Assembly: GCA_947302535.1 (NCBI GenBank)
Contig: CAMYVX010000003.1
Coordinates: forward strand, 6,593 to 70,592
Length of the DNA: 64,000 bases
DNA from: an uncultured Bacillales bacterium
Lineage (GTDB): Bacteria > Bacillota_I > Bacilli_A > RFN20 > CAG-826
Direction: 5' to 3'
The notes under the pieces were generated by a model. That model did no database searches. It had not been told where the DNA came from and saw only the letters and a list, made by a program, of their open reading frames with translations. Made by a program: the position numbers and the translations under genes. Of this stretch, positions 13,975-62,444 are shown one piece after another (the first letter of the stretch is position 1; each line of letters starts with the position of its first letter).

Positions 13975-16677
13975 TTAGTCGTTAATACCAATGAAGATTG
14001 CTTCTTCAGGTTCTGCACCTTTATTAGCACGGACTGGTTTCTTATTCTTTCTTGGTTTGCGTTTTCTTTCGATGTTATCAAGTTTGAATTTAGCATAGAA
14101 GAAATTAGAAATAGGCACCAATAAGGTTGTAACGGCAATAAATGTAACGATACTAGAAATAGCTAGAGCTAAGAACATCCAGGATGTCACAATTGGACCA
14201 AAGCCAAAGAAGTCAATGGCGAGCCAGAAGATAAAGATGAATGAAGATAATGTTAAGGAGAACACTAAGGAGTTGGACTTATTCAAAAGTTCAGCGCGGT
14301 GTTCAGAAGAATTATCTCTTACTTTTTCTTCTAGAATCATATCTCTTTCTTTATTCATGATGGCAATTGCTAAAGCAAAAGCAAAGACACCAACGACAGG
14401 AACAAAGGCAAGAGTGTAAGAAGTGACAGGTAGTCTTACTAAAGCGAAGAATCCCCACATAAATGTCGCTGAAGCAAGGGCTAAGATATAAGCGCCTAAA
14501 CCACGAGACAAACGATATCTAAGGACTAAATAGAATCCAGCAACAGTAACACCAACTAAAGTTGCAAGAGCGGCTGGCCAAGCTACTGGAGAATCATTAC
14601 TATAAGTCTTAGTAACTTTCATAGAAATAGAATCGGTTTCATCATCAAAGCGATCAGAAACGACATATTCAATAGTCTCTTCGAGGCTAGCAAATTTTTC
14701 TACTTTATCATCATGTGTATAAATACCTTTATAGGAAGCTGGATCATAACTACCATCTAAGGTAACTAAGAATGTGTAATGTTCAATTGGATTCTCCTCA
14801 TCATCAGGATTTGGTTCACTCCAAGTATCTTTCTTCTCTAAAGAAGAAACAACATCGGAAAGTTTCTTCGCATCTTCTTCATCTTTTTCATAGAAAGAGA
14901 TTTGTTCAAGAACTTCTCTTACATCCGCTTCTTCAGTTAATCCACTATATTCGTTTGTGGTTTCAAAATAAATTTGTGAGTTGCCAACTTTGCTACCTTG
15001 AGCATAGATTTGGCCTTTATTAATAGCACCAAAGACAATACCTCCAACTAAGGAAGCCACAAATAAAGCGGCAAAGACAATACCAATTGGCTTCTTTTTC
15101 TTAGTGAAATCTTTATCGGCATATGCACCATAATAAGTTTGTTTTTCTTCTTTAGCTAAGTTAGGAACATGTTCACCATTAATACCAAAGACTTCGTATT
15201 TACCTTGTAAGCAAGTTGCATTAGTGGCTAACCACATCATACCTTTTAATAAGGTGACATTTAATAATAAGGAAGCTAAGCCACCAAAGACAGTAATAAC
15301 AGCAAAGGTTCTCATGGCTTGTCCGCCTAAAACATAGCAGAAGATACCAATAATCATTAAGACGACGTTAACGTCGACAATTGGAAGCAAGGATCTTCTA
15401 CTAGCTTCGCTATTGGCTTTCTTTAAGCTCCTACCACGATATGCTTCTTCTTTCATCTTGTGCATATAGATAATGCTACTTGTTAAAGAAGCAAAGGCCA
15501 CAGCAATTAAAGCAGCAACGGCAAATGTTGTAAATTCAGCATTGAATAAGATAGTTGCCCCGATAGCAGCAAAGATAGAAACAACTGCGTTAACAACAAT
15601 ACTTAAAGTAGATAGACGATAGAAAGCCACTAAGATAAAGGCAAGGATAATAAGAGCGGCAATCATAGCAATGAAAGTTTTGCTGAAGCTTAATCCACCT
15701 TCATTAACTAAGGTTTCATTCCAAGCACTAGCGCTCTTTGAGTATAAGTAAGTGACTTTATAATCTAATTCACCAGCGTTAATTAAATTAACGATATAAC
15801 GGGCTTGATTATAGCCGTATTCTTTTTCACTTAAATCAATATCACCGCTACTATCACGGTCCATATTAACCATGGAATAGAGTTTGTTATATTCTCCATC
15901 GTCATAATAGAAGGAGGTTTTGTTGCCATCCTCATCTTCACTTTCAGGAGTAATTTCGAATTTCATTAATAAGCGACTTGTCGCTGATTCTTTTTTCTCT
16001 TTCAAAGCATCAAAAGTACATTTTTCATCATCATAGTCATACCAAAGGTAGAAATAGCAATGATATTCAGTAACTTCTTCGCCATCATCTCCTTGAGAGG
16101 AAGTGGCTTCGCCAAATTCTGATTTCTTGCTATCATCGGCTAAGTCGTCTTCAGTTTCTTGGAGCATTTGTTTATAGTAAGAGTTTTCAACATCAACAGG
16201 TAAAACAACTGATGGGTAACCATTACTAGTAGTTTTCATAATAGCTTGTTCGCCACTTGGGAGGAAGGATGGGTTATCATCGTTATCAGATGTAGTTAAG
16301 ACAGTGTTATGGGCGTTACTTAAACCAAGAGAACCATTGAATGATAAATAGGTTCTAATATGTTCTAATTCTTCTTCACTATAGGATTTTAAAGTGACTT
16401 TAACAGTATCTTGATTTTGAGTCTCGACTTTATAGTTAGAAACTTTATAAATATCAAGTCTTTCAATCATCTTTTCGGCGATATAGTCGGCGCCTTTTTC
16501 TTCGCCCATTCCAATATCTTCACCGTTTTCGTCAACGTTAGTTACTCTAAAGGTCATCTCTGTACCGTTACTATATTCAATATTGAATTGAGATTTCACG
16601 AAAACAGAAACGAATGTTGTACCCACAAGTACAAGCGCGGTAACTGCGGTAATAATGTAAGCCCATAATCTACGCAT
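13975..16677 (-). CDS. secDF: Protein translocase subunit SecDF (fused)
   Basis: 900 aa; N-terminal TM, large periplasmic domain, two 6-TM bundles; fused SecD-SecF. Confidence 0.8.
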   Translation of the reverse strand: MRRLWAYIITAVTALVLVGTTFVSVFVKSQFNIEYSNGTEMTFRVTNVDENGEDIGMGEEKGADYIAEKMIERLDIYKVSNYKVETQNQDTVKVTLKSYSEEELEHIRTYLSFNGSLGLSNAHNTVLTTSDNDDNPSFLPSGEQAIMKTTSNGYPSVVLPVDVENSYYKQMLQETEDDLADDSKKSEFGEATSSQGDDGEEVTEYHCYFYLWYDYDDEKCTFDALKEKKESATSRLLMKFEITPESEDEDGNKTSFYYDDGEYNKLYSMVNMDRDSSGDIDLSEKEYGYNQARYIVNLINAGELDYKVTYLYSKSASAWNETLVNEGGLSFSKTFIAMIAALIILAFILVAFYRLSTLSIVVNAVVSIFAAIGATILFNAEFTTFAVAALIAVAFASLTSSIIYMHKMKEEAYRGRSLKKANSEASRRSLLPIVDVNVVLMIIGIFCYVLGGQAMRTFAVITVFGGLASLLLNVTLLKGMMWLATNATCLQGKYEVFGINGEHVPNLAKEEKQTYYGAYADKDFTKKKKPIGIVFAALFVASLVGGIVFGAINKGQIYAQGSKVGNSQIYFETTNEYSGLTEEADVREVLEQISFYEKDEEDAKKLSDVVSSLEKKDTWSEPNPDDEENPIEHYTFLVTLDGSYDPASYKGIYTHDDKVEKFASLEETIEYVVSDRFDDETDSISMKVTKTYSNDSPVAWPAALATLVGVTVAGFYLVLRYRLSRGLGAYILALASATFMWGFFALVRLPVTSYTLAFVPVVGVFAFALAIAIMNKERDMILEEKVRDNSSEHRAELLNKSNSLVFSLTLSSFIFIFWLAIDFFGFGPIVTSWMFLALAISSIVTFIAVTTLLVPISNFFYAKFKLDNIERKRKPRKNKKPVRANKGAEPEEAIFIGIND

Positions 16678-25492: not shown

Positions 25493-26074
25493 TTATTGGA
25501 CTATCTTTTCAATTGCTTGTTTTAAGGAAGTTAGTGTTCTAGTTTCTTTACTTGAAACGTAATAAACGTTTTCCTTATTAATATCAAGCTCTTTGAGCCT
25601 TTTGTCCACTAAGGCTTTTTCTTTTTGATTGACCTTATCAATTTTTGTAATAACAATGAAATATTTCTTATTGTTTTGTTTTAAGTAAGACAGTATCTCT
25701 AAATCGTTATCAGAAAAATCACGACGCGAATCAATTAATAGAAGTACTAAAGCTAATCTAGAGGCTTCTAATAAATAAGAATTCATCATCTTGGCGAATA
25801 ATTCATCAAGATCAATTCCACCTTTAGCATAGCCATATCCAGGAGCGTCTACTAAATAAAAGGTATGGTCAATGTCATAATAATTTAGCAAACGTGTATG
25901 TCCTGGTTTGGAGGAGGTAAAAGCAAGTTGGTTTCTTGAACACAAAGCATTAATTAATGAAGATTTACCAACATTACTTTTACCCACAATTAAAACTTCT
26001 TTATATCCCGCTTGTGGAGCGTCGGATATACCAGTTGCAGATTTTATAAAAGTGACATTTTTATAATTAAGCAT
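25493..26074 (-). CDS. engB: Ribosome biogenesis GTP-binding protein EngB/YihA
   Basis: 193 aa; G1 GKSNVGKSS; overlaps the lon stop by 8 nt, matching the Bacillus lonA-ysxC arrangement. Confidence 0.85.
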   Translation of the reverse strand: MLNYKNVTFIKSATGISDAPQAGYKEVLIVGKSNVGKSSLINALCSRNQLAFTSSKPGHTRLLNYYDIDHTFYLVDAPGYGYAKGGIDLDELFAKMMNSYLLEASRLALVLLLIDSRRDFSDNDLEILSYLKQNNKKYFIVITKIDKVNQKEKALVDKRLKELDINKENVYYVSSKETRTLTSLKQAIEKIVQ

Positions 26075-28403
26075 CTTTCCTTAATAAGGCCACTTCTACA
26101 GCGTCCGCGACAGAAGTCATATAAATGATTTTTAAAGATTTTTTAACTTCCTTTGGAAGTTCATCCACATCTTTTGCGTTTTCTTTAGGAACGACAATAG
26201 TCTTAATGCCGCTTCTTAAAGCCGCTAAAGATTTTTCTCTTAATCCACCAATTGGAAGAGCATTTCCTCTTAAAGAAACTTCACCCGTCATAGCGACATT
26301 AGGATTAACTGGAGTATGAGATAAAGAAGAGATAATCGCTGTTGTAATAGCGACACCTGCGCTAGGTCCGTCCTTTGGAACTGCTCCTTCTGGAACATGG
26401 ATATGAATATCGTTATCCATGAATAAATCAGGATTAACGTTAAATCTTTCTGCATTAGCTTTGACGTAGTCTAAAGCAATGGAAGCACTTTCTTTCATAA
26501 CATTGCCTAAGTTACCAGTCAAAACAAGCGCTCCCTTACCTTTGAAGTAATTAACTTCAATTGGAAGAATATCTCCGCCATATTCGGTATATGCTAAACC
26601 AGTAACAACACCGATTTGGGGTTCTTTTTCTTTTTGTGAATCTTCAAAGATTGGTGTTTTTAAATATTCACGAATCTTCTTTTCATCAATATCGATATGC
26701 TCGATACTTGGATCTTTAACAATTGCAACAGCAACTTTTCTTAAGCAAGAAGCAATCTTTCTTTCTAAATCACGAACACCAGCTTCACGTGTATAGTGAC
26801 GAATAATAAATTTGATTGCATCATCGCTAAATGAAGCTTGTCCTTCTTTTAGACCATTAACTTCGATTTGCTTTTTCACTAAGTGTTGCTTAGCAATTTG
26901 TACTTTTTCTAGTTCTGTATAAGAAGAAAGTTGAATTAATTCTAAACGATCTCTTAATGGACCAGGAATTTGGTCTAAATAGTTAGCGGTACAAATAAAT
27001 AAGACATCGCTTAAATCATATGGTTCTTCCATATAATTATCGTTAAAAGCGTTATTTTGTTCTGGATCAAGGACTTCTAAAAGCGCACTGGCGGGGTCGC
27101 CCTTATAAGAAGAAGCTAATTTATCAACTTCATCTAAAAGGAAGACAGGGTTAGTAACACCGGCTTTTCTCATTCCTTGAATGATTCTTCCTGGTAAAGA
27201 ACCTACATAAGTTCTTCTATGTCCACGAATTTCCGCTTCATCAGAAATACCACCCAAAGAAGCTTTAAAGAATTTTCTTCCTAAAGCGCGAGCAATGGAT
27301 TTACCTAAACTGGTTTTCCCAGTTCCTGGAGGACCAAAGAAACAAAGAATTGGAGACTTTAAATTACCTGTTAATTTTTTAACAGCTAAATATTCAACAA
27401 TTCTCTTCTTAGGTTCTTCTAAACCATAATGGTCTTCATCAAGAATCTTTTCGACATTCTTTAAATCGTTATTATCTTCAGTTTTTTGCCACCACGGAAC
27501 ATTCATGATGACATCTAAATAAGATTGGATAAGAGCAGCTTCTAAAGAACCTCCTGGCATCATTTCCATCTTTTTAATCTCAGCTTTCACTTTAGCTTTG
27601 ACATGTTCTGGATAAGGATTCTTTTCTAGTTTCTCTAAGATGGTATCAGGATCATTAGATGAATTAGCGTCTTCCCCTAATTCTTTCTTAATAGCTTTAA
27701 GCTTTTCTCTTAAATAGTATTCTTTTTGCGACTTTTCAGTTGATTCTCTAATGGTGTTATTGATATCACGATCAATTTGTTCTTTTTGGTTTTCACCATT
27801 AAGTAAAGTAACAACATAAGGGACTAATAAGTCAATAGAATCAATTTCTAAAGCTTTTTGCTTTTGTTCTTTATTAATCTTTAAAATGCTTACTAAATTA
27901 TAACTTAAAGTTATAGGCGATGTAGATTTACCCACCACATTAGCCACACTTCTAGGCATCATTTGAATGACACTTGGAGATTTATCTAAAGCCTCTCTAA
28001 TAGAGCGGACATAGACGTCTTTAACATCATCTGCAGGCTCTTCTAAATTGGAGATTTCGCCTTTGGCGATATAATAGCCATTCGCATCAGGAGCGATGAT
28101 ATGAGAGAGTTTAACTCTTTCAACGACTTCGATACGGATTTTAAGTTTATCTCCACGATCCGTAATAGCGACAATACGGCATAAAGCGCCGGTTTCAAAA
28201 ACTTCTTCGCTAGTTGGATGTTCAGGAGCTTCGTCTTTTTGACAAGTCGAGAAGAACAAGGAATCAGTTTCATCTCTACTAGCCTTAATCGCGGCGATGG
28301 AAAAATCACGACTCGCATCAATTAGTTGTTGCGTTTCTGGAAATAACACCATGCTTCTTGTGATAAGAAGAGGTAAGGTTAAGGATTGTGTCTTTTCAGG
28401 CAT
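26067..28403 (-). CDS. lon: ATP-dependent Lon protease
   Basis: 778 aa; LON N-domain, AAA+ (GPPGTGKTS), protease domain with catalytic Ser in PKDGPSAG. Confidence 0.9.
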   Translation of the reverse strand: MPEKTQSLTLPLLITRSMVLFPETQQLIDASRDFSIAAIKASRDETDSLFFSTCQKDEAPEHPTSEEVFETGALCRIVAITDRGDKLKIRIEVVERVKLSHIIAPDANGYYIAKGEISNLEEPADDVKDVYVRSIREALDKSPSVIQMMPRSVANVVGKSTSPITLSYNLVSILKINKEQKQKALEIDSIDLLVPYVVTLLNGENQKEQIDRDINNTIRESTEKSQKEYYLREKLKAIKKELGEDANSSNDPDTILEKLEKNPYPEHVKAKVKAEIKKMEMMPGGSLEAALIQSYLDVIMNVPWWQKTEDNNDLKNVEKILDEDHYGLEEPKKRIVEYLAVKKLTGNLKSPILCFFGPPGTGKTSLGKSIARALGRKFFKASLGGISDEAEIRGHRRTYVGSLPGRIIQGMRKAGVTNPVFLLDEVDKLASSYKGDPASALLEVLDPEQNNAFNDNYMEEPYDLSDVLFICTANYLDQIPGPLRDRLELIQLSSYTELEKVQIAKQHLVKKQIEVNGLKEGQASFSDDAIKFIIRHYTREAGVRDLERKIASCLRKVAVAIVKDPSIEHIDIDEKKIREYLKTPIFEDSQKEKEPQIGVVTGLAYTEYGGDILPIEVNYFKGKGALVLTGNLGNVMKESASIALDYVKANAERFNVNPDLFMDNDIHIHVPEGAVPKDGPSAGVAITTAIISSLSHTPVNPNVAMTGEVSLRGNALPIGGLREKSLAALRSGIKTIVVPKENAKDVDELPKEVKKSLKIIYMTSVADAVEVALLRKDA

Positions 28404-28428
28404 ATAATATCCTCCTTTAACTAGTTAA

Positions 28429-29697
28429 TTAGTTATTTTCTTTTAAGAGTTTTTCAACTTTTTGTAATTTTAAGTTATCAGCAAAGGCACCCATATTTTG
28501 TGCTAAGGCTTTCTTCACGTCTTCTAACTTCATCTTGTATTGTTCAGCAAGTTTCTTCATTTCTGCTTCAATATCAGCTTTATTGACTTCGATTTTTTCA
28601 ACTTCAGCAATCTTATTGATTAAGAAATAGTTACTCACTTCTTTTAAAGCGTCTTTTTTAATTTGAGCGACGAATTCTTCTTCTTTTTGTCCCACTAAAG
28701 AAAGGTATTGTTCTAAAGTCAATCCAGATTGAGAGATTCTATTTTCTAAATCTTTCTTTCTACTTTCCACTTGAGCATCAATAATTTCTTCTGGAACATC
28801 AACTGTGCTGGTCTTAAGGATTTCTTCAATAAGATCCGCCATAAATTTATCGTTAATTTCTTTTTCTTTCGCGCTCTCTAATTCTTTTTGTTTATGAGCT
28901 TTGAGTTCTTCTAAAGTATTAACGTCTTTAATAGATAATTCTTTAACAAATTCATCGTTTAATTCAGGCAATTTCTTGGCTTTCACTTCGTGAATATCAC
29001 ATCCAAAAACAGCATCTTTGCCTTTTAATTCTGGAGTGTAGTTTTCTGGGAATTTGACTTTAACATCAACGTGTTCGCCAGCTTTTTTACCCACTAATTG
29101 TTCTTCGAAGCCAGGAATGAAGGAATTGCTACCAAGTTCTAATTCATAGTTTTCAGCAGAACCACCTTCAAATTCTTTATCATCGACGCGGCCTTTGAAA
29201 TCCATAACGACGACATCGCCTAAAGCGCTTTCGCCTTCTTTAATCGCTAAAGAAGCGTTTTCTTTTAATAAATCATCTAAAGCTTTCTTAACTTCTGCTT
29301 CGCTAACTTTCGCACTTCCTTTTTTCACTTTTAATCCTTTATAGGTACCTAAAGTAACTTCTGGCTCAGTGACGATAACGAATTTTAATTCTAAATCGGT
29401 ATCACTGATCTTAGTAACATCAACCTTTGGTTGAGCATGTGGATTAATGCCTTCCTTAATAATTTCTTCATAAGCTTTTGGTAAGACTTCGTTGACAGCT
29501 TCTTCTAAGACTTTGCCTTGATCAACGCGAGATCTCACTAATTGTTCTGGAGCTTTGCCTGGTCTAAATCCATCGATTTTGATTTTGCTAGCTTCTTTAT
29601 CAAATGCTTTCTTTTGAGCAGCTTTCCATGTTTCCACATCAACACTCACTAATACTTCAACATGAGAATGTTCTAATTTTTTAATTTTCTTTTCCAT
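28429..29697 (-). CDS. tig: Trigger factor
   Basis: 422 aa; ribosome-binding N-domain, FKBP-type PPIase, C-terminal arm; upstream of lon. Confidence 0.9.
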   Translation of the reverse strand: MEKKIKKLEHSHVEVLVSVDVETWKAAQKKAFDKEASKIKIDGFRPGKAPEQLVRSRVDQGKVLEEAVNEVLPKAYEEIIKEGINPHAQPKVDVTKISDTDLELKFVIVTEPEVTLGTYKGLKVKKGSAKVSEAEVKKALDDLLKENASLAIKEGESALGDVVVMDFKGRVDDKEFEGGSAENYELELGSNSFIPGFEEQLVGKKAGEHVDVKVKFPENYTPELKGKDAVFGCDIHEVKAKKLPELNDEFVKELSIKDVNTLEELKAHKQKELESAKEKEINDKFMADLIEEILKTSTVDVPEEIIDAQVESRKKDLENRISQSGLTLEQYLSLVGQKEEEFVAQIKKDALKEVSNYFLINKIAEVEKIEVNKADIEAEMKKLAEQYKMKLEDVKKALAQNMGAFADNLKLQKVEKLLKENN

Positions 29698-42481: not shown

Positions 42482-42508
42482 TTAGCACTTGCACTTGTAG
42501 AGTGCTAA
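42482..42508. promoter_or_regulatory. CIRCE operator (HrcA binding site) overlapping the clpB promoter
   Basis: TTAGCACTT-N9-GAGTGCTAA matches consensus TTAGCACTC-N9-GAGTGCTAA at 17 of 18; followed by TGTTACAAT extended -10 and RBS aaggagg. Confidence 0.8.
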
Positions 42509-42555: not shown

Positions 42556-44673
42556 ATGAACATGAATCAAATGCCTGATTATGAAAATGATAAAGATGTC
42601 CTTCAAAAATTTGGTCGTAACATTAATGAAGAAGTCAAGAAAGGGAAGATCGACCCAGTCATCGGACGTGACGAAGAAATAAGAAAGATTATCGAAATAC
42701 TCGCACGCAAAACCAAGAACAACGTTATTCTTTTAGGTGAACCTGGTGTTGGTAAAACCGCAATTCTTGAAGGTTTAGCGGAACGTATCGTTAAAAACGA
42801 TGTCCCCACTATTCTTAAAGATAAAACTATTTATGAATTGGATATGGGCGCTCTTGTTGCGGGTGCTAAATATCGTGGTGAATTTGAAGAAAGGCTAAAG
42901 GCAGTTTTAAATAAGATCAAAGAATCAGAAGGAAAGATTATTCTTTTCATTGATGAAATCCATCTAATTGTGGGAGCCGGTCGTACTGATGGAGCTCTTG
43001 ATGCTTCTAATATGTTAAAGCCTATGCTAGCTAGAGGTGAAATCGATTGTATCGGTGCCACTACTCTAAAAGAGTATCGTGAATATATTGAAAAAGATAG
43101 GGCCCTAGAAAGAAGATTCCAACCTGTTCTAGTTAATGAACCTAGTGTAGAAGATACTGTCACTATTCTTAGAGGCTTAAAGAACCGCTTTGAATCTTTC
43201 CATGGTGTCAAAATCCTTGATAGCGCTCTTATCGCAGCTGCTACTTTATCTAATAGATACCTTACCAGCAGATTCCTTCCCGATAAGGCTATCGACTTGG
43301 TCGACGAAGCTTGTGCTTCTATTAAAGTGGAACTAGCTTCTATGCCCGCTAGTTTAGATGACTTACAAAGAAAGATCCGTCAATTAGAAATTGAAAAAGT
43401 CGCTATCGCTAAGGAAACGGATAATGTTTCTAAGGCTCGTTTAGAAGATATTGAAAAAGAGTTAGTCTCTTTAAAAGAGAAAGAAAAAACTCTTCACGAT
43501 AAATGGCAAAAAGAAAAAGAAGAAATCTTACATATTCAAAAATGTAAGGAAGAACTCGAAAAAGCTCGTTTTGATCTTGAAGTGGCTTTGTCTAATTCTG
43601 AATACGAAAAAGCGGGTCAACTTAAATATAAGACTATCCCTGAACTAGAGAAGGCTTTAAAACAAGAAGATAACGAAACCACCAAAGGTGAGAAACTCTT
43701 ATCTCAAGTTGTTGATGAAGAAGAAATCGCTAAGATTATCTCTAAACAAACTAATATTCCACTATCTAAGATCGAACAAGGTGATAGAGAAAAGGTTTTA
43801 AATTTAAAACAAACTCTCAGTAAACGTGTTATCGGTCAAGACGAAGCCTTAACTTTAGTTAGTGATGCGATTATCCGTCAAAGAGCGGGTATTAAAGATA
43901 CAAATAGACCAATCGGCTCGTTCCTTTTCCTTGGTCCTACTGGCGTCGGTAAAACCGAAGTCGCTAAGGCGCTCGCGGAATCCTTATTCGATTCTGAATC
44001 TCATATTATTAGAATTGATATGTCGGAATATATGGAGAAGTATTCTACTTCCCGTCTTATCGGTGCTCCTCCAGGATATGTTGGCTATGAAGAAGGCGGC
44101 CAATTAACAGAAAAAGTAAGAAGAAGTCCATATAGTATCGTCTTATTCGATGAAATCGAAAAAGCGCATCCAGAAGTCTTTAACTTATTATTACAAATGC
44201 TTGATGATGGTCGTTTAACCGACTCTCAAGGACGTGTTGTTGATTTTAGAAACACTATTATCATTATGACTTCTAATTTAGGAAGCGAGTATTTACTTAA
44301 TAATGAGAGAGATAAAGTAGAAACTTTACTCCATCAAACCTTTAAACCTGAATTCTTAAATCGTATTGATGAGATTGTTTACTTCTCTCCTCTTTCTAAA
44401 AAAGTACAAGGTAAAGTTGTTGATAAACTCCTCAATATTCTAAAGAATAGACTTGCAGAATCTCATATTGAAATCAGTTACTCCGATAAGCTCAAGAACT
44501 ATATTTTAGAGAATGCTTATTCTCCAATCTATGGAGCGCGTCCTATTAAACGTTTCATTCAAAATAAGATTGAGACCGCGATCGCAAATGCGATTGTCGC
44601 AAATAAGATGGCGCAAGGTCATCACTATCTCATCGATATTGAAGAAGACATCATTATCAAAGAAACAAAATAG
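42556..44673 (+). CDS. clpB: Chaperone ClpB lacking the N-terminal domain
   Basis: 705 aa; two AAA+ modules ([18 protein letters not shown]) with coiled-coil middle domain between them; no ~150-aa N-domain. Confidence 0.9.
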
Positions 44674-52376: not shown

Positions 52377-52741
52377 AAGATTTCCTCAGTTCGTAATGAA
52401 CTTTAAAGAAGAGATATTCCCTACGCTTGGTCAGAGTATCAACAGAAATATCTAATCTCAAACTACCACTAGGGTAGCCACGGTCATCTAACGTTCATAT
52501 AAATTAGACTTAGGCTTACTTTTGGTAAGTCACAAATACTTACTGGTGATAGATAAATCTATTCTTGTTCTCCGCATAGGAGGGAAAGGAAACCAATAGT
52601 ATTTGCCCGAACACATCAATTCTTCATTTATTTATAAAGTATGCACGGGACATTGATGTGTTGAGGTTGATTCTCCTCTTTAAAATTCATTAAAAGGGAA
52701 AAGGGACCCTTAGTTTCCCAAAGGTCCCTAATTATTAATAA

Positions 52742-55700
52742 TTATTTTTCTTCTTTTCTTTTTCTAAAGAAGAAGTAAGCACCAACGGCAGTTGCACTAA
52801 GCATAGAAATAACTACGATCAATGAAACAGCGTTATTAGTGTTCATAGAAACACCGACAAGGCTAATGCTTGTTGGAGCAGAACCTAGAGGTTTAAGTTC
52901 CTTCATGAAGGCAGTCATTCCGTGTTTTTGGACACAGACTTCATAAGTCTTCATCATTCTTTCAATACAAGCTTCACCACTGTCATCAGAATATTGTGCA
53001 GTTGCATACTTAATCAAGTTCTTTGCGTACGCTTCTTCAGCGGAACCTAAAGCGGCAGCTTCGGACTTAAATGTATTATATGCAGTTGAACATGCTGACC
53101 ATGCATCATCTAATCCTTTTGTGCAGTTTTCAGTTTCATCCATTGCAGCATTAAATGCTTGAGCGAAGGCTACTGCAACTCTTTGAGCAGCTTTGTGTGA
53201 TGCGTTATTAGCTATATTTTCTGAACCACTAACAGTGTTAACAACAATTTCTTTAACATAAATGGCTTTAGAAGAACTGTTAACCCAATCAATGGAAATA
53301 GTTCCAGATTTGCCACCTAAATCGAAAGTGTAAGCAGTATTTGTGTTGGTGATTGTTTGAGCTGATCCATAAGCAGTTCCACCGACACTAACTTGAACTG
53401 TTGCATTGATGCTATTAGCACCAGATGTATAAACAGTTACAGAATCAACTGTTCCGCTAAATGCGGATGATTGTAATGAAACAACTGAGTATGGATGTGT
53501 TCCAGAACCAAATTGTTGTCCTTTTGTAGCATCATAGCCAAAATATGGCGTTCCATCATCTGTGCCAGACATGGTCCATAATTTTTCGCTAATTGTCCAG
53601 TCACCAGCAGCACTCCAAGCTTTTGCTGTGAATGTATGATCCCAAGAATCTGTTAAACTAGCATTAACAGCGTTAATTGTTTGAGTAACAGTAACAGCTA
53701 CAGATGAAGAAGAAATTCCACCGTATTCGACATGTAATGATTTGCCATCATCTTCGGTCACAAATGTGTATGGAAGTGAAGTAATTTCTTTGCTTCCTAC
53801 ATATAATTCATAATCACCAAATGTAATGTAATCGGCATCACCATTATTCTTCTCGTAGTTAACTTCCCAAGTATCATCGATATTAGATGGGATAGTTGCG
53901 CCGGAGAAGACATCAAAAGCAGATGCGCTCCAATTAACTTCAGTAACTGCACTAGCAATGACACTAAATGTCACGCTGGCAGAATCTGATTTGCTGTTAG
54001 AATCAGTAACAGAACATTGAAGTGTAACACTACCAGCAGCGCTACCACTTAGGGTAACTGTTGCACTTGATCCACCACTTGAAATAGAAGCATAGCTTCC
54101 GCCTGATGTGATTGACCAAGAATATGAATATGGACTTGTTCCACCTTCAACAGATGCTGTAACAGTTGTTGTTTTTCCAGTATACAAAGTTACTGAATTT
54201 GGCAATGTAACAACTGGGTTACCAGAAACTGTTAAGACAAATGTTTGATATTTGCTTGAATCAGCGGTTGATGTACATTTCAAGGTGATTGTACCTTCGG
54301 TACTACCGGCTTCGACAATATCAGCCTCAAATGTATAGTCATTATTGACTGTATTGCTTAAGACAGTCCATTCATATGTTTGAACTGCATCAGCAGGCAA
54401 AATGGTAACTCCAATTTCTGACATATCAAATAATTCAGTTGTTGCCACTTTTCCAGTATTAGAAGCAATTGTTAAACTGCTAACAGGAGCATTAGCAACA
54501 CTAATTGAGTAGGTTGCTGTTTTTGTAATACCACCTTCAGTGTATTTGGCATAAATGGTATGACCATCATGAGCAGCGTGTGTCATGGTAACACCAGACA
54601 TACTTGTCCCTTCAGCAGAATCTAGGTGGAATGTTGTGCTACCAGTAACAGCTTTTGGACTATCAATTGTGTAACTTGCAGTTACAGTTCCACCAAATGA
54701 GAATGTTTCTCCACTAGCGAACGAAGTCTTGTAATCACCGGAAAGAGCAATTGAACTTAATTCGTTTTGAGGTGGAATATAAGCAAACATGTAAACATCG
54801 CCAACACCACTATCTGTCTTGTAGTTTCTCATATCGTGATAACTTGTGTTCATTCTCCAAACACGGCCACTACCAGTAGAAGATGTACATGTGAAGAGGA
54901 TGTATTTGTTGTCTTTGATAGAAGCACTGAATGTTGAAGCATTAGCTTCAGTGTCAAAAGCGTCGTTGCCATTTGAAGTTCCGGTGAATTTCAAGTACTG
55001 ATCACCACATTTAATTTTCCATCCAGATGATGATGAACCTTTTAAAGTAAGAACCATGGCTTCAGTAGAAACGAGTGTACTACCAGAAGCAACACCGTTT
55101 GAAATTGTTGTTGCAGCTGTCTTTGCAGTTAAAGCAACGTGATTGCTAGAAATAGCAGTGTCAACATAATATGTTCCAGAAGTTTCATAAACTAATACAA
55201 ATGTTGTGTCTTCGACTAAGTTAGCAACACTTGTAACGATTGTGTATGTTGTTACTTCTTGATAAACAGCAGTAACTGTTGTAGCACCACTAATAGTTAC
55301 AGTAGCACCTTCGGCGTATTCAACGCCTCCAACACTCCATTTCTTAAATGAATAACCGCTTGAAGCTGTAAATCCTGCAGTAGCAAATGTTACTAATGTG
55401 TATGAACCACCATAAACATTGTTTACAACATAGTTGCTACCTGTTCCGTGATCACCATGAATATAGGTCACTGTATATTTTGCATCTTCAGTCCAGTATG
55501 CAGTATATTCGATATCATCGCCTACTGCTGGTGATTCGTCTCCTGCATCATATAAGGTATTACCACCATCGCTACTCCAACCATCAAACGAATAGTGCGT
55601 TTTTGTACCTGGAGATGGGAATTCGAATTTTTCTCCATCTTCTACGCTCATATCAGCAATAGAGGCACCTCCATCACTATCAAAAGATACTGTCCAATAG

Positions 55701-56641
55701 GTAACACTGTCATCTAGTGCGGTCACCACTAAATCGACATAGACAGAAGTTTGAGTATTACCGGAAATTCTAAATGTTTCAGATCCGGACGTATTACCTT
55801 TTCCTGTAACAGTAAATGAACCAGAACCACTTGAGCATGTAGCAGAACTGCTTACTGTAAAGAGGCCAGATGTTCCGCTTTGGTGAGCAATATTGACTTT
55901 TTGGTCAGTTGCACCAGATGGATTTAAGGTTACAGAAACTGTTTTGGCTGTAAGGTCGCTAGATCCAATTGACAATGCGTTTTGAGATGCAGCACCACCT
56001 AAGGTAATTCCAGTTAATGGTGTCGATCCAGCAGTATAAACTTTAATGGATTTTAAATACGTCCTATATTTTTTGGCAGTTGTATCGACCTTAATCGAAG
56101 TAAGTGTTGTCGATCCATCCCAGGCAAGCTCTTTATCAGCAAACGAACCAGAGGTTGAACCAGTAGTATATGTTGTATATCCTGTACCACTTGTTGCGCC
56201 ATTCAATGACAATTTGATAGTTTTGCCAGTGTCATTTGCCGCAGCTAATTCAAAAACGACCTTTGTTGCCTTGACTTGTCCAGTTGATGACAAATTGAGC
56301 GTTAAAACACCGGCATAGTTGCCAGAGCCAAGTTTAACACCGCAGTTAGATTTGCCTTGATAAACATACGACGCTGTGACACTCGAAACATAAGAATTAC
56401 CACTACTAACAATGTCAGCTAGAGCGGTTTTTGCTGCTGTTCCATCGCTAGAATTGCCGCTATCCTTAAGCGTAATTGTATAAGCCAGGGAATCTGCAGC
56501 ATGTACTGGAGTAGCTTCTTTGCCACTACTAGCAAAAGCAACACCAACACCTACAGCCATCGCTAAGCCGACAAAAGCTATAGCGATTTTTGTAAATAAT
56601 TTATTCATAAATCTAAATCTCCTTTCAATAAAAGTCTCCAA
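52742..56641 (-). CDS. Large surface-anchored protein with Listeria-Bacteroides-type (Flg_new) and Ig-like repeats
   Basis: 1299 aa; signal peptide paralogous to the nuclease gene (MNKLFTKIAIAFVGLAMAVG vs MKNLFSKIMVAFLGASLVIG); YSFDGWS Flg_new motif; C-terminal TM helix plus RKRKEEK; followed by terminator hairpin gggacc...ggtccc. Confidence 0.65.
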   Translation of the reverse strand: METFIERRFRFMNKLFTKIAIAFVGLAMAVGVGVAFASSGKEATPVHAADSLAYTITLKDSGNSSDGTAAKTALADIVSSGNSYVSSVTASYVYQGKSNCGVKLGSGNYAGVLTLNLSSTGQVKATKVVFELAAANDTGKTIKLSLNGATSGTGYTTYTTGSTSGSFADKELAWDGSTTLTSIKVDTTAKKYRTYLKSIKVYTAGSTPLTGITLGGAASQNALSIGSSDLTAKTVSVTLNPSGATDQKVNIAHQSGTSGLFTVSSSATCSSGSGSFTVTGKGNTSGSETFRISGNTQTSVYVDLVVTALDDSVTYWTVSFDSDGGASIADMSVEDGEKFEFPSPGTKTHYSFDGWSSDGGNTLYDAGDESPAVGDDIEYTAYWTEDAKYTVTYIHGDHGTGSNYVVNNVYGGSYTLVTFATAGFTASSGYSFKKWSVGGVEYAEGATVTISGATTVTAVYQEVTTYTIVTSVANLVEDTTFVLVYETSGTYYVDTAISSNHVALTAKTAATTISNGVASGSTLVSTEAMVLTLKGSSSSGWKIKCGDQYLKFTGTSNGNDAFDTEANASTFSASIKDNKYILFTCTSSTGSGRVWRMNTSYHDMRNYKTDSGVGDVYMFAYIPPQNELSSIALSGDYKTSFASGETFSFGGTVTASYTIDSPKAVTGSTTFHLDSAEGTSMSGVTMTHAAHDGHTIYAKYTEGGITKTATYSISVANAPVSSLTIASNTGKVATTELFDMSEIGVTILPADAVQTYEWTVLSNTVNNDYTFEADIVEAGSTEGTITLKCTSTADSSKYQTFVLTVSGNPVVTLPNSVTLYTGKTTTVTASVEGGTSPYSYSWSITSGGSYASISSGGSSATVTLSGSAAGSVTLQCSVTDSNSKSDSASVTFSVIASAVTEVNWSASAFDVFSGATIPSNIDDTWEVNYEKNNGDADYITFGDYELYVGSKEITSLPYTFVTEDDGKSLHVEYGGISSSSVAVTVTQTINAVNASLTDSWDHTFTAKAWSAAGDWTISEKLWTMSGTDDGTPYFGYDATKGQQFGSGTHPYSVVSLQSSAFSGTVDSVTVYTSGANSINATVQVSVGGTAYGSAQTITNTNTAYTFDLGGKSGTISIDWVNSSSKAIYVKEIVVNTVSGSENIANNASHKAAQRVAVAFAQAFNAAMDETENCTKGLDDAWSACSTAYNTFKSEAAALGSAEEAYAKNLIKYATAQYSDDSGEACIERMMKTYEVCVQKHGMTAFMKELKPLGSAPTSISLVGVSMNTNNAVSLIVVISMLSATAVGAYFFFRKRKEEK

Positions 56642-56930
56642 ACCCGTTTTGGTTATTTAGGTTTGTGAGTATGAATAAATATTTGATTAGAACATCAATT
56701 GGTAGGCTTCCAATTACAGCCTATAAGATGACTAATCGAAAATTGTTTGCTCGTTACCTTTTCGAGGGGTAACTCGCAAGATTTGAAAGAAGGTATCTAC
56801 TAAAGAATTATGCATCTATTCTTTAACGATAACTTTTTCAATCAAAGCGTGACGCGGTTTTTGACCTTCTGACCACCAGTCTCACACCTCACACTTATGC
56901 GTATATAATACAAAGAAGAAGAAGAAGAAG

Positions 56931-56957
56931 CAAGCACTCAGTTATATAGAGTGCTAA
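56931..56957. promoter_or_regulatory. CIRCE-like inverted repeat in divergent intergenic region
   Basis: CAAGCACTC-AGTTATATA-GAGTGCTAA, 16 of 18 to the CIRCE consensus; right half is followed by AAGCACTC giving a nested palindrome; overlaps the predicted -35 of the minus-strand promoter. Confidence 0.45.
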
Positions 56958-57203
56958 AGCACTCTAAAAAGTTTGATTATCGTCTTGTTTGATGAAAAAA
57001 TAGGTTCAGTTATAGTAGAAAGAATATGCAATAATTTTTTATCCTACTTAACCAAAATTCAAACAAACATAATAAAAGCTGTTTCCTTTAGAGGCATCAA
57101 TGAAAACTGTCTTTTTAAATATTAATATACAAATAAAATATTAATTTTATTATTTAGGATTGTGTATGATTACAAACAATAATTTAAAGGAGGGTTTTAA
57201 ATT

Positions 57204-57809
57204 ATGAAGAAAATATCACTATTACTTGCCACTTCCGCTCTTAGTGTTATCGCTGTTGGTGCGGTATTAGCAACAAACTATAGTAATGGCGCTCCATTTG
57301 CTAAAGCGGAAAAAAGAAGTGAGAGCGATCCATACACTATCACTATTGACTCAACTAAAAAGGAATTCCATACTGGTGGATTTGATATTAAAACCGAATT
57401 AGGAAACACTATTAGTTTTTCTTCTAATGGTGTTGTTAATCCTTCTACTAGAGAATTAGTTAGTGGCGGTGATGGCTTATATGTTTATAACGATGTTACT
57501 TATTCTGGCCATGACGAAGTTTTAGATAACTTAATCACCAGCATCACTTCTGTTACTGTTGAATTCACCAACAACGATACTGAAAATCCACTATCTATTT
57601 ATGCAGAGACTGATTATTATGATGAAAACGAGCCTAGTAAATATAGCTTTGATTATTATATTTTCTATGATGATGTTGATGAGATTGAAATTGAAAGCGG
57701 TGTAACGTGTGAATTCACCGGAGACAATCTCCCTACAGCTTTTACCATCAATACTGATTCAAACGAAATATCCATTTCTAAAATCACCATCACATATCTA
57801 TGTGCATAG
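57204..57809 (+). CDS. Secreted/anchored protein, family shared with 59297..60679
   Basis: 201 aa; N-terminal signal/anchor; conserved EPYTITIDS block shared with the 460-aa paralog; RBS aaggagg. Confidence 0.55.
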   Translation: MKKISLLLATSALSVIAVGAVLATNYSNGAPFAKAEKRSESDPYTITIDSTKKEFHTGGFDIKTELGNTISFSSNGVVNPSTRELVSGGDGLYVYNDVTYSGHDEVLDNLITSITSVTVEFTNNDTENPLSIYAETDYYDENEPSKYSFDYYIFYDDVDEIEIESGVTCEFTGDNLPTAFTINTDSNEISISKITITYLCA

Positions 57810-57828
57810 TAAAATAGAGTTAAGATTG

Positions 57829-57856
57829 AAAGTCGACAAACAAGGTCGGCTTTTTT
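57829..57856. terminator. Bidirectional terminator between convergent genes
   Basis: Hairpin aagtcgacaaacaaggtcggctt plus a T-run. Confidence 0.55.
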
Positions 57857-57888
57857 GTTTAACGCTATTTTGGTTTTAATATGTTCTA

Positions 57889-58902
57889 TCATTTAATAAA
57901 CTTATTAATTTCTTCTTCAGTAGGCAAGTATTGTTCGATTGCATAGGATGTCACTCCTATCGGGGCATTGCTAGATTTTAAAGACCACTCAACAGAATAC
58001 CTGTCTTTGTTTTTACATAATAGCAAGCCAATCGTAGGATTATCACCTTCTTGTTTAAGTATTTCATCGATAGCGGTAATGTAAAACTGAAGCTGCCCTA
58101 TATATGATGGGTCAAAATCAGTGTTTTTAAGTTCTACAACAACAAAACACTTTAAACTCAAGTGATAAAACAAAAGATCGATATAGTAATCCTTGTGGCC
58201 AGTACTAATTCGATATTGATTGCCAACGAAAGAAAACCCTTTTCCAAGCTCTAATATGACTGTCTTTATACGTTCAACCATCCTTTTTTCGATGGCTGTT
58301 TCTATCATCTTTTCAGATAGTCCATTAATCTCAAAAATGTAAGGATCTTTTAATAAATCCATTGCCAGTTCACTTTGTTTAAGTGGCAAGTTTTTATCAA
58401 AATTAGCAAGTTTTCTAGTATTAATGCCTTGCCTTTCAAATAGTTGTAAATCAATTTGGTGATTGAGAACAATATAGCTCCACCCATTTTCAAAACATTT
58501 GTTGGCATACCAGATTCTTTTGTCTGTATTTTCTATTTTGTCTATTAATAGACAATTAAAAGACCATGGCAATTTTGCCAATGCCGTTGGCAAATTTGAT
58601 AAATCTAAATAAGATTCATAAAATTTCTTCATTCGTGAAAGATTTCTTGGCGAAAAACCTGTATTGTTTGGATAATCTATTTTCAAAGACATGGATAAAG
58701 TATTGATAAAATTAGAACCATATTTTTGATTTTCGCTTATCACTTTCCCAATTCTAAAATACAAACAAATAAGTTCCATGTTGGCATCACTCAACATTTT
58801 ATTTCTTGTTAGTACAATGTCTTTTTTGATGTCTTTAACTAATTTCATCATTTGATCTAAATCAATTGTATCTGCTACTTTTTTCATTAATAAAACCTCC
58901 AA
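57889..58902 (-). CDS. YhcG-like PD-(D/E)xK nuclease-domain protein (DUF1016 family)
   Basis: 337 aa; C-terminal IDLLFYH...VVVELK PD-(D/E)xK signature typical of DUF1016/YhcG proteins. Confidence 0.65.
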   Translation of the reverse strand: MEVLLMKKVADTIDLDQMMKLVKDIKKDIVLTRNKMLSDANMELICLYFRIGKVISENQKYGSNFINTLSMSLKIDYPNNTGFSPRNLSRMKKFYESYLDLSNLPTALAKLPWSFNCLLIDKIENTDKRIWYANKCFENGWSYIVLNHQIDLQLFERQGINTRKLANFDKNLPLKQSELAMDLLKDPYIFEINGLSEKMIETAIEKRMVERIKTVILELGKGFSFVGNQYRISTGHKDYYIDLLFYHLSLKCFVVVELKNTDFDPSYIGQLQFYITAIDEILKQEGDNPTIGLLLCKNKDRYSVEWSLKSSNAPIGVTSYAIEQYLPTEEEINKFIK

Positions 58903-60893: not shown

Positions 60894-62174
60894 CTAGTTT
60901 TTTAAAGATGAGAGGGGAACAACATAAACTCCATCCGGGCGTTTATACGCGGCATTTGATAATCCACAAATAATGCACAATGATTTAGCTGGCTTACCAC
61001 CATGATCCGTTATTTCTTTATTTATTTTAAGCAGTTTATTTGCTGCCGAGTCAATTTGATTGGCGCCCAATTTAATTTCTATTGCACACCACTCGCCATC
61101 ATCAAGTTCAATAACGGCATCAATTTCGTTATTAGAATAATCTTGGTAATGAAACAATTCAGCGTTGAATGTTTCAGCATAAATCCTTAAATCTCTTTCA
61201 ACAAGAGCTTCAAACATAAAACCAAATGTATCTAAATCTGATATTAATTTTGTGGTATTTAAGTTTAGAGCAGCACATGCTAAAGCAGGGTCACAAAAAT
61301 GTCTTTTTTCTCCTTGTTTAATTCTTAATGAAGAACGAATCTTTGGGCTGAAAGGTTTTTGATTTTCTAATAGAAATAAGCGTGATAATGAATTCAAATA
61401 TTTGTTTATTGTTTCGTCACTAACAATACTTTTATCCGTTGCTGATATGTCTTTTGATAAAGATAAATTGGTTATTGTTGTAGATTCGTTTCTTGCTAAC
61501 GATCTTAGAAGAAGATTAATCTTACTGGTCTCGTATCTAACGTCCTCATCAAGTTTTTGGATATCCTCAAATAATACACTTTTGAGGTATCCTTTTGGAA
61601 GAATGCCTGCTTTCTCTTTCGAAACACCAATATTGTCTGGCCAACCACCCCTAACAATCAAATATGCAATTGTTTCCAAATCTACATCACCAGTTAACAG
61701 AGTTTGATTAAAAGAATTATCACAGATTTCTTTTAAAGAAACTTTGCCATTAGAATCTCCTGACTCATATAGGCTCATAGTATGCATACGTATCCCGATG
61801 ATTCTTCCAGTTCCTGAATGTAATACACCTTTCCTAACAGGAGTTGATGAACCCGTTAAGATATATTGACCTTTATGATTTGTCTCATCCACTTTCATTC
61901 TTACAGCATCCCACAATGGAGGAACTTCTTGCCATTCGTCTATAAGACGAGGAAAATCACCATTTAAGACTTTTATTGGATCCATTTCTGCGAGTCTTCT
62001 ATTACTGAAATTGTTAGAAGGATCGCCTACATAATAGTAAGAGGTAGAGTGAAAAGAAGAAGTCCAAGTCTTTCCGCACCATTTAGGCCCTTCTATGCAA
62101 ATCGCCTTAGCTAAACCAAGGTACTCATTTATCTTATCATCAATTAATCTTGGTTTATAATTGTCTTTATTCAT
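60894..62174 (-). CDS. AAA+ ATPase with DUF4143 domain (COG1373 family)
   Basis: 426 aa; P-loop GPKWCGKTW, IDEWQEVPPLW...YILTGSS, HSGTGRIIGIRMHTMSLYE, the family-typical blocks. Confidence 0.8.
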   Translation of the reverse strand: MNKDNYKPRLIDDKINEYLGLAKAICIEGPKWCGKTWTSSFHSTSYYYVGDPSNNFSNRRLAEMDPIKVLNGDFPRLIDEWQEVPPLWDAVRMKVDETNHKGQYILTGSSTPVRKGVLHSGTGRIIGIRMHTMSLYESGDSNGKVSLKEICDNSFNQTLLTGDVDLETIAYLIVRGGWPDNIGVSKEKAGILPKGYLKSVLFEDIQKLDEDVRYETSKINLLLRSLARNESTTITNLSLSKDISATDKSIVSDETINKYLNSLSRLFLLENQKPFSPKIRSSLRIKQGEKRHFCDPALACAALNLNTTKLISDLDTFGFMFEALVERDLRIYAETFNAELFHYQDYSNNEIDAVIELDDGEWCAIEIKLGANQIDSAANKLLKINKEITDHGGKPAKSLCIICGLSNAAYKRPDGVYVVPLSSLKN

Positions 62175-62444
62175 ACAATCGACCTCCTGTCAAGATAATT
62201 CTATTTTACGCATATTTAAAAATATATTACAAGAAACTTGGAAACATTTTGCACTTTTACTTGGAAACTTTTTGCACTTTTACTTGGAAACTTTTTCAAA
62301 TAAAAATAGTCATTGTTTTTTATAAAAAAGTCAGAAATTTCGTTCGTTTCTGACTAGATATCCAGATGTCTAAGTACTACGAAAATAATACAAGGAACAC
62401 TTTTTGATAAGTGGTAACACTTTTTAAATGTTAACACGAATAAA

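Follow-up and report, generated by a model that had tools for sequence, protein, structure and literature searches.

What controls the large envelope-protein gene on the minus strand of this 64-kb stretch of DNA from an uncultured Bacillales bacterium (contig CAMYVX010000003.1; the whole stretch is called the window below), and can the trinucleotide repeat in front of the gene switch it? The repeat, (AAG)6 on the plus strand and (CTT)6 on the minus strand, is joined on one side to an inverted repeat that resembles CIRCE (controlling inverted repeat of chaperone expression), the operator of the repressor HrcA, and is followed on the other by a long 5′ leader. We propose that these elements form the promoter–operator cassette of the surface-protein gene, in which the spacer would be a hypermutable switch, the CIRCE would be a gate, and the leader would mask the translation start. 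We estimate the probability of this reading at about 0.6.

The repeat fills the space between two recognizable promoter hexamers. The tract is perfect (Tandem Repeats Finder (TRF), 6.0 copies, 100% identity) and is the sole trinucleotide array that the program reports in the window. In addition, CTTCTTCTTCTT is unique to this site within the window, and 0.07 matches are expected from shuffled sequences. On the minus strand, the elements are ordered as a third CIRCE arm (GAGTGCT), the inverted repeat TTAGCACTC-N9-GAGTGCTTG, TTGCTT, a 17-nt spacer (CTTCTTCTTCTTCTTTG), and TATTAT. The core therefore reads as a sigma-A-type promoter, TTGCTT-(CTT)5TG-TATTAT (56933..56905), with a perfect simple repeat between the −35 and −10 hexamers. 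The −10 hexamer of relatives is TAGAAT, TATAAT, TAAAAT, or TAACAT. From the position of the −10 hexamer, transcription is predicted to start near position 56898. A preliminary description of this DNA had already read the tract as the spacer of a minus-strand promoter, and both the reading and its direction are borne out: the block is invariant in diverged relatives, relatives without the repeat keep the 17-nt spacing, and loci with short leaders place the same promoter close to the start codon. It had also called the −10 element extended, which does not hold. The TG directly abuts the −10 hexamer rather than occupying the TGn position, and relatives have an A there (TTTA-TAGAAT), so the dinucleotide is not conserved.

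The same cassette recurs in front of other genes. A pattern scan for AGCACTC-N9-GAGTGCTTGCTT(CTT) retrieves 15 loci in species-representative genomes, with up to three cassettes per genome, and 37 loci in metagenomes, where the matches with at least three units represent the same cassette. We count 46 distinct cassette sequences, all from metagenome-assembled genomes (MAGs) and metagenomes of rumen or gut. The genomes that carry them are labeled uncultured Erysipelotrichaceae (rumen RUG MAGs), Bacilli bacterium (RGIG ruminant-gut MAGs), and Bacillales UBA2450. Orthologues that share 90% and 84% protein identity with the window gene retain the block TTAGCACTC-N9-GAGTGCTTGCTT(CTT)5T-TAnnAT unchanged; the other intergenic sequence and the upstream neighbour differ. 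Wherever the start codon is on the contig, the cargo is a secreted protein, a lipoprotein, or a membrane protein, and it is heterogeneous among loci. It is either a large surface protein of the MNKLFTKIA type with a 300–400-nt leader, or a lipoprotein or other secreted or membrane protein with a 25–100-nt leader. At eight short-leader loci, the cassette lies 25–60 nt before the start codon. Three short-leader genes (338, 625, and 515 aa) were considered as hrcA, dnaK, or groEL and rejected, as their products are a multipass membrane protein, a secreted protein, and a collagen-like lipoprotein.

Three relatives that were retrieved by protein rather than by pattern serve as natural controls. These loci (L068, L069, and L062) have neither CIRCE nor repeat, and their hexamers are still 17 nt apart, with unrelated spacers: TTGCTT-CAAAAGCATATTCTTAA-TAGAAT in L068, TTGCAT-17 nt-TAGAAT in L069, and TTGTTT-17 nt-TACAAT in L062. 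These repeat-less relatives validate the predicted promoter as that of the surface gene. Moreover, two covarying hairpins of the leader, described below, start about 20–35 nt downstream of the −10 hexamer. The repeat-less controls, the short-leader loci, and the hairpins just downstream together fix the direction and the position of the promoter, the activity of which we infer. Among the loci retrieved by protein, CIRCE and (CTT)n are both present in eight and both missing in three, and neither is found singly. They behave as one cassette.

The number of repeat units varies among cassettes. Three, four, five, six, seven, and eight units are present in 1, 2, 2, 30, 6, and 5 of the 46 distinct cassettes, respectively. 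The spacer was measured as the distance from TTGCTT to the best TAnnnT and scored in 44 cassettes. Spacers of 11, 14, 17, 20, and 23 nt are found in 2, 5, 25, 8, and 3 of them, so that 43 of the 44 have a length of 17 ± 3k nt and 17 nt is the mode. The bases at the junction of the repeat and the −10 hexamer vary (TA, CCCTC, CTGTT, CG, or CC), and at some loci the last T of the repeat is the first T of the −10 hexamer. In the latter case, seven units give the 17-nt spacing (L042 and L070). The genes behind spacers of other lengths are intact. Copies within one genome are found in different states, namely 17, 11, and 14 or 20 nt in RGIG3320 and 20 and 23 nt in RUG14307.

Closely related sequences differ by whole units. 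L058 differs from L059/L060 over 6273 bp by no mismatch and one 3-bp gap, which corresponds to 8 versus 7 units. Likewise, L071 and L072 differ over 6282 bp by no mismatch and one 3-bp gap, which corresponds to 6 versus 5 units. Both pairs come from independent assemblies. Three loci that encode one identical protein (P0008) have 6, 6, and 7 units. Two contigs of a single metagenome (Ga0256405) are identical over a 126-bp overlap up to the repeat and have 6 and 8 units. Identical loci thus differ by one unit, and therefore the repeat mutates far faster than the other sites of these loci, and it does so by whole units. As far as these alignments reach, the behaviour of the repeat is that of a contingency locus.

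In the mechanism that we propose, slipped-strand mispairing would add or remove 3-bp units and change the spacer from 17 nt to 14 or 20 nt (or to 11 or 23 nt). A shift from the optimal 17 nt would switch the promoter between ON and OFF in a heritable and reversible manner. The copy in the window, with six units, is in the 17-nt state and is presumed to be ON. Because the cassette precedes many envelope-protein genes in this uncultured rumen and gut lineage of Bacilli, each of these genes could be switched independently. We consider repeat-driven switching probable. The preliminary description had likened the tract to the slipped-strand phase-variation design of vlp/vsa-type genes. The likeness is strengthened by the one-CTT differences between family loci and by spacers of 11–23 nt with a mode of 17 nt; the ON and OFF states are predictions throughout, and the window locus is known from a single sequence. 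The comparison stands for vlp, which has a promoter-spacer repeat, and falls for vsa, which switches by site-specific inversion.

The inverted repeat adjacent to the −35 hexamer is a close match to CIRCE. Read on the plus strand as CAAGCACTC-AGTTATATA-GAGTGCTAA, it has two mismatches to TTAGCACTC-N9-GAGTGCTAA: 16 of the 18 positions agree, and the 9-nt spacing is exact. The window contains two CIRCE sites at up to three mismatches, against 0.00 expected by chance. The 16-of-18 match and the extra arm that had been noted before are thus both confirmed, the latter because GAGTGCT (56964..56958) pairs with the left arm. Both mismatches are bases that form the TTG of the −35 hexamer, and the operator overlaps the promoter in that its right arm supplies this TTG. 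Relatives retrieved by protein conserve the arms, and their N9 varies freely. About 40 of the 46 cassettes have the complete 9-nt left arm TTAGCACTC, though its TT was not demanded by the search pattern. Since the CIRCE is fused to the −35 hexamer, bound HrcA would exclude RNA polymerase, and repression is expected from an HrcA dimer at about −59 to −33. HrcA could thereby act as a global gate that answers proteotoxic stress or temperature.

The second site of the window is the CIRCE of a Clp-type ATPase gene. It overlaps the −35 region of a TGnTACAAT-type promoter and in this respect resembles the CIRCE of the surface gene. The tig-lon pair (26067-29697) has no CIRCE within three mismatches. 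From the canonical clp site, and from it only, we infer that the genome encodes HrcA. A functional CIRCE of Mycoplasma gallisepticum departs from the consensus at no more than two positions, and the four regulators conserved among Mollicutes groups include HrcA (PMC5138195). On balance, we give HrcA control of the cassette an even chance. The CIRCE was also considered as the operator of the divergent 201-aa gene and rejected, as the site lies 247 nt upstream of that gene, the gene has a promoter-like site of its own, and the divergent neighbour differs in every related locus. Two of the relatives without CIRCE, L068 (about 880-900) and L069 (about 1000-1020), have a common GCACCCCCTA box in its place, a few bases upstream of the −35 hexamer. 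This box may be a different operator.

A perfect palindrome lies at the upstream end of the cassette. In 38 of 40 cassette loci, a palindrome with 7–11-bp arms and a 2–4-nt centre either ends 2–3 nt before AGCACTC or overlaps the left CIRCE arm as a third half-site, as in the window. Its sequence varies by locus group, and the best stem in shuffled controls has a median of 4 bp. It persists about 26 nt upstream of the −35 hexamer in relatives without CIRCE (L062, about 745-760; L068). It could insulate or terminate divergent transcription, form a cruciform, or serve as a binding site. A role as terminator of the upstream gene was rejected for L062, where that gene has its own GC-rich terminator.

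The gene starts further downstream than had been described. The open-reading-frame list places the start at TTG 56641, and the preliminary description gave a 1299-aa protein and a leader of about 265 nt. The ATG at 56608 is preceded by the ribosome-binding site GAAAGGAG, and the N-terminus MNKLFTKIA that follows from it is conserved in all homologues. Therefore, the protein has 1288 residues and the leader has about 290 nt. Leaders of the MNKLFTKIA family (290–400 nt) are also found in relatives without CIRCE and repeat, and conserved sequence islands are present in 19 leaders. A search of positions 56000-58000 against Rfam 15 gives a sole match at E ≤ 1, to a small-RNA model at chance level (20 bits against a gathering score of 80). 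A known RNA family was thus rejected for the leader, which matches no curated covariance model.

The leader is predicted to fold into conserved hairpins and to pair with its own translation start. Whole-leader analysis with RNAalifold on a MAFFT alignment gives the first hairpin (H1) only, because the alignment is poor; anchored local analyses were used instead. In H1 (25 sequences), 81% of the cells pair, against 57% in shuffles, and the covariation is 0.67, against 0.23 in shuffles and at most 0.25 in slid controls. All seven pairs have changes on both sides. In the second hairpin (H2; 16 sequences), 85% of the cells pair, against 63.5% in shuffles, and the covariation is 0.49, against 0.13 in shuffles and at most 0.08 in slid controls. 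In 15 of 19 leaders, no other part of the leader complements the Shine-Dalgarno (SD) region as well as the segment that immediately follows H2. Further downstream, an anti-start element is complementary to the start codon region. Across 21 loci, UUUAUUCAU pairs with AUGAAUAAA and UUGUUCAU pairs with AUGAACAA (partner also written AUGAACAAA), and in 20 of the 21 the element changes in step with the second codon, which varies synonymously (AAU or AAC). Therefore, two leader elements are positioned to mask the translation start. In vivo, masking of the ribosome-binding site and the AUG by the anti-SD and anti-start elements would provide a third, translational layer of control. The features are listed in Table 1.

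Table 1 Features of the surface-protein locus and the second CIRCE in the window.
Feature	Position	Strand	Basis or remark
CIRCE-like inverted repeat TTAGCACTC-N9-GAGTGCTTG (minus reading), presumed HrcA operator	56931..56957	.	About −59 to −33
Upstream perfect palindrome GAGTGCT-TT-AGCACTC	56949..56964	-	Third CIRCE half-site paired with left CIRCE arm as GAGTGCTTTAGCACTC; GAGTGCT = 56964..56958
−35 hexamer TTGCTT	56928..56933	-	TTG inside right CIRCE arm; CTT is repeat unit 1
(CTT)6 repeat filling the promoter spacer	56913..56930	-	TRF; (AAG)6 on plus strand
17-nt spacer CTTCTTCTTCTTCTTTG	56911..56927	-	Sequence reading; mostly (CTT)5, then TG
−10 hexamer TATTAT	56905..56910	-	TAnnnT at equivalent position in all relatives
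Opposite-strand −10-like TATAAT	56904..56909	+	Part of CTCACA-17 nt-TATAAT; best consensus match of the region (10/12); overlaps forward −10
Structured leader, about 290 nt	56609..56898	-	Minimum free energy (MFE) −75.1 kcal/mol, z = −3.7 versus shuffles
Hairpin H1, loop UGGUCAG (family consensus UGGUCAA)	56845..56896	-	Covariation, 25 sequences
Hairpin H2 UAAAGAAU / AUUCUUUA, self-complementary loop hexamer AUGCAU (GUGCAC in most relatives)	56801..56825	-	Covariation, 16 sequences
CU-rich anti-SD element CCUUCUUUCAAA	56782..56793	-	10-bp duplex with SD region, −11.9 kcal/mol
Anti-start element UUUAUUCAUA, complement of UAUGAAUAAA (start codon and two codons)	56670..56679	-	Paired in MFE fold
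SD sequence GAAAGGAG	56619..56626	-	Conserved in all family leaders
1288-aa envelope-protein gene	52742..56608	-	Signal peptide MNKLFTKIA..., Flg_new and PKD-like repeats, C-terminal membrane anchor and RKRKEEK
Intrinsic terminator GGGACCTT...AAGGGTCCC, then T-run	52693..52729	-	Sequence reading; gene monocistronic
Second CIRCE, one mismatch	42482..42508	+	Upstream of 705-aa Clp-type AAA+ ATPase gene (42556-44673)

Several points weigh against the proposed model and have to be set beside other explanations, beginning with those of the repeat. The window's own locus is known from one sequence only, and the variation is found in family members; exact-protein look-ups of the window surface protein and of its 201-aa neighbour retrieve no other contig. 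The scans demanded TTGCTT and both CIRCE cores, so that conservation is in part ascertainment, and the unbiased set is that of the 11 protein-retrieved loci. The −35 hexamer agrees with the consensus at three of six positions only, for which reason an automated promoter scan of the region did not list the minus-strand promoter; the opposite strand scored better. Classical families such as vlhA keep most copies OFF, and most cassettes here (25 of 44) sit at 17 nt. This mode, together with that at six units (30 of 46), would suit an ordinary conserved promoter–operator in which the CTT spacer slips occasionally and the length variants are mildly deleterious, neutral, or expression-tuning rather than states of a selected switch. 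The orthologues of the window gene point the same way, with six units in eight of nine sequences (UBA2450 has four), as do the tract itself, which at six trinucleotide units is short for high-frequency slippage, and some tracts that look decayed, with CCCTC, CTGTT, or CAT at the repeat end (L008, L017, and L050). We nevertheless regard such a promoter as unlikely. The repeat stays pure across lineages with diverged flanks, though a non-repeat 17-nt spacer serves equally in L068 and L069; one unit is the sole difference in two 6.3-kb pairs; 41% of the scored cassettes are off-optimum with intact genes, and copies within a genome differ in state; and the cargo is restricted to envelope proteins, like that of known contingency loci. 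A mechanism like that of vlhA, in which a protein that counts GAA/TTC units, or non-B DNA formed by the purine–pyrimidine tract, sets the activity instead of the hexamer spacing, is less probable again. The repeat unit is the same as in vlhA, and the literature on vlhA proposes an activator that recognizes exactly 12 units as well as unusual physical properties of the DNA (PMC6258824); in our loci, CIRCE and repeat always occur together, which hints at a joint function beyond spacing. However, the tract lies exactly between a recognizable −35 and −10, its modal length gives 17 nt whatever the junction (seven units in L042 and L070), and relatives without the repeat keep 17 nt.

The operator raises similar questions. 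The CIRCE-like repeat could instead be structural, acting with the adjacent palindrome as a cruciform, hairpin, insulator, or terminator, or it could be the site of another, lineage-specific protein. The variable perfect palindrome that abuts CIRCE in 38 of 40 loci and outlives it in CIRCE-less relatives fits such a role. So does L067, where a C-to-A change in the left arm (three mismatches) is compensated in the third arm and not in the right arm, which preserves the hairpin of the third arm and not the symmetry of CIRCE; this pattern fits selection for a hairpin as well as selection for HrcA binding. A U-rich CUU tract follows the CIRCE hairpin in the forward direction, and T-rich runs follow the palindrome in the reverse direction at about half of the loci. 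In addition, the cargo genes are not heat-shock genes and include no chaperone or protease of the known HrcA–CIRCE regulon (dnaK, groESL, clpB, lon), no hrcA is found among window open reading frames of fitting size, and the CIRCE lies upstream of the −35 hexamer, unlike in Bacillus subtilis, where it lies downstream of the transcription start. Against a purely structural or lineage-specific element, the match to the consensus spans 9-nt arms with the exact 9-nt spacing, far beyond the needs of a hairpin, and a canonical CIRCE stands at the Clp ATPase promoter of the same genome; the other palindromes have weak stems of A and T only, and a terminator scan finds nothing at the site. We therefore hold this alternative unlikely, though the least improbable of the four considered here. 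On the plus strand, TATAAT (56904-56909) could drive a short HrcA-controlled RNA comprising (AAG)n, the CIRCE hairpin, and the palindrome as terminator. The best consensus promoter match of the region is indeed on that strand, relatives have TATATT or TATATG at this site, the former overlapping the forward −10 hexamer, and CIRCE would then occupy its canonical place just downstream of the transcription start, with the T-rich runs after the palindrome at about half of the loci. But relatives have no conserved plus-strand −35, the window lacks a T-run after the hairpin, and the divergent neighbour varies by locus, whereas the 17 ± 3k spacing, the controls L068, L069, and L062, and the short-leader loci all indicate the forward promoter. 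Such a unit is the least probable alternative; weak divergent transcription from the plus-strand match into (AAG)n-CIRCE is possible.

The surface protein contains, by Pfam, Flg_new and PKD-like repeats only and has no homology to VlhA; the earlier label "adhesin-like" was thus a guess. Its 90 homologues all come from MAGs or metagenomes. An operon with the downstream 1018-aa nuclease gene was rejected, as the intrinsic terminator after the surface gene rules it out. The divergent gene (57204..57809, plus strand) encodes a 201-aa secreted protein with the C-terminus ...ISKITITYLCA; the secreted proteins driven by the cassettes of L014 and L050 contain a similar module (ISKIEITYLC and ISKVVLNYSC). 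The 201-aa protein may belong, as a small member, to the same repertoire of envelope proteins.

Genes for a YhcG/DUF1016 PD-(D/E)XK nuclease (57889-58902, minus strand) and a DUF4143 AAA ATPase (60894-62174, minus strand) adjoin the surface locus. Such genes recur beside related loci elsewhere, downstream in L058-L061 and upstream in L070. A 23-bp tandem repeat, ACTTGGAAACTTTTTGCACTTTT (2.7 copies, 97% identity, 62236-62296), is intergenic beside the DUF4143 gene. The rest of the window is ordinary chromosome, with ruvAB, obg, nadE, recJ, relA, valS, tig-lon, and SecDF. The best NCBIfam model of SecDF (13975-16677, minus strand) is mycoplasma-specific (SecDF_plasm), and one lower-ranked match of the second ABC (ATP-binding cassette) transporter (8720-10501, minus strand) is of the Mbov_0121 type. 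These mycoplasma-type models hint at a Mollicutes-like lineage, despite the NCBI labels Erysipelotrichaceae and Bacilli.

Each component of the cassette has counterparts in known systems. Repeats in promoter spacers switch porA of Neisseria meningitidis (poly-G), hifA/hifB of Haemophilus influenzae ((TA)n), fim of Bordetella pertussis, and vlp of Mycoplasma hyorhinis (poly-A) (PMC3899988). As in these systems, the −35 and −10 hexamers of a surface gene are separated by a perfect repeat, a change of unit alters the spacing, and the repeat is polymorphic between near-identical strains. In contrast to them, the unit here is a trinucleotide, its first copy is part of the −35 hexamer, and a repressor operator is fused to that hexamer. 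The cassette moreover serves many unrelated envelope genes, the hosts are uncultured commensal rumen Bacilli, and switching is deduced from sequence. Since a trinucleotide moves the hexamers in 3-bp steps, the change would be near-binary, ON or OFF, rather than graded.

Like our loci, the vlhA (pMGA) genes of M. gallisepticum encode variable surface proteins, form a multigene family in a Mollicutes-like host, and have GAA/TTC units upstream, in a number that varies among orthologues and strains, between highly conserved flanks. In vlhA, the coding-strand GAA repeat lies about 40 nt upstream of the transcription start, outside a promoter that is not sigma-70-like, and 12 units correspond to ON (PMC6258824). 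Here, CTT is on the coding strand, the tract is the spacer of a sigma-70-like promoter, and six (or seven) units give 17 nt. The window cassette thus has neither a repeat outside an atypical promoter, nor 12 units, nor a VlhA-family lipoprotein as cargo. With the HrcA–CIRCE regulon, the cassette shares a sigma-A promoter overlapped by an inverted repeat with 16 of 18 matching positions, in a genome with a canonical clp site. It differs in that the targets are envelope proteins, that many copies are present per genome, and that the operator lies upstream of and over the −35 hexamer, fused to a hypermutable repeat.

A repeat beside a repressor operator is also found in nadA of N. meningitidis, where TAAA units lie between NadR operators (PMC3899988). 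There, unit number and repressor jointly set adhesin expression, and we envisage a similar combination of stochastic and environmental input for the cassette. The nadA repeat is upstream of the core promoter and alters the geometry of the operators, whereas the repeat here is the core spacer, and operator and −35 hexamer move together. Leaders that sequester the SD sequence include RNA thermometers (ROSE and fourU) and translational riboswitches. The leader described here likewise has elements complementary to the SD and start codon regions, with covariation. It is, however, much longer (290–400 nt), has two extra conserved hairpins with conserved loops (UGGUCAA; GUGCAC/AUGCAU), and has no Rfam match. 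No description of such a cassette came up in full-text literature searches that combined CIRCE or HrcA with phase variation or adhesins. The kinds of element are themselves known. What is new is that the spacer contains a trinucleotide unit, that this unit is fused to CIRCE, that uncultured rumen Bacilli place the cassette before many unrelated envelope genes, and that a leader is associated with it. If true, the three-layer design of CIRCE, hypermutable trinucleotide spacer, and masking leader would be undescribed for any cultured organism.

Most known cases of surface-protein phase variation come from cultured pathogens, and the same logic is found here, from sequence alone, in abundant uncultured commensals of the rumen. 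The cassette is short and sharply defined, and it is directly searchable in metagenomic reads. The leader is a candidate for a new cis-regulatory RNA with clear pairings. Should HrcA act through the CIRCE, the heat-shock operator that is most conserved among bacteria would have been recruited to gate a whole family of envelope proteins, and a random switch would be combined with an environmental one. We tentatively suggest, as a doubtful extension of the model, that Mollicutes-like rumen Bacilli use one standard cassette for a variable envelope proteome, with each gene turned ON or OFF on its own and all gated jointly by HrcA, in response to host temperature or protein-folding load, and, in the MNKLFTKIA family, by a translational sensor. 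Such a system would be relevant to the evasion of phages, protozoa, and host antibodies by bacteria of the gut and rumen, and to the way in which MAG surveys should interpret "strain variation" at these loci.

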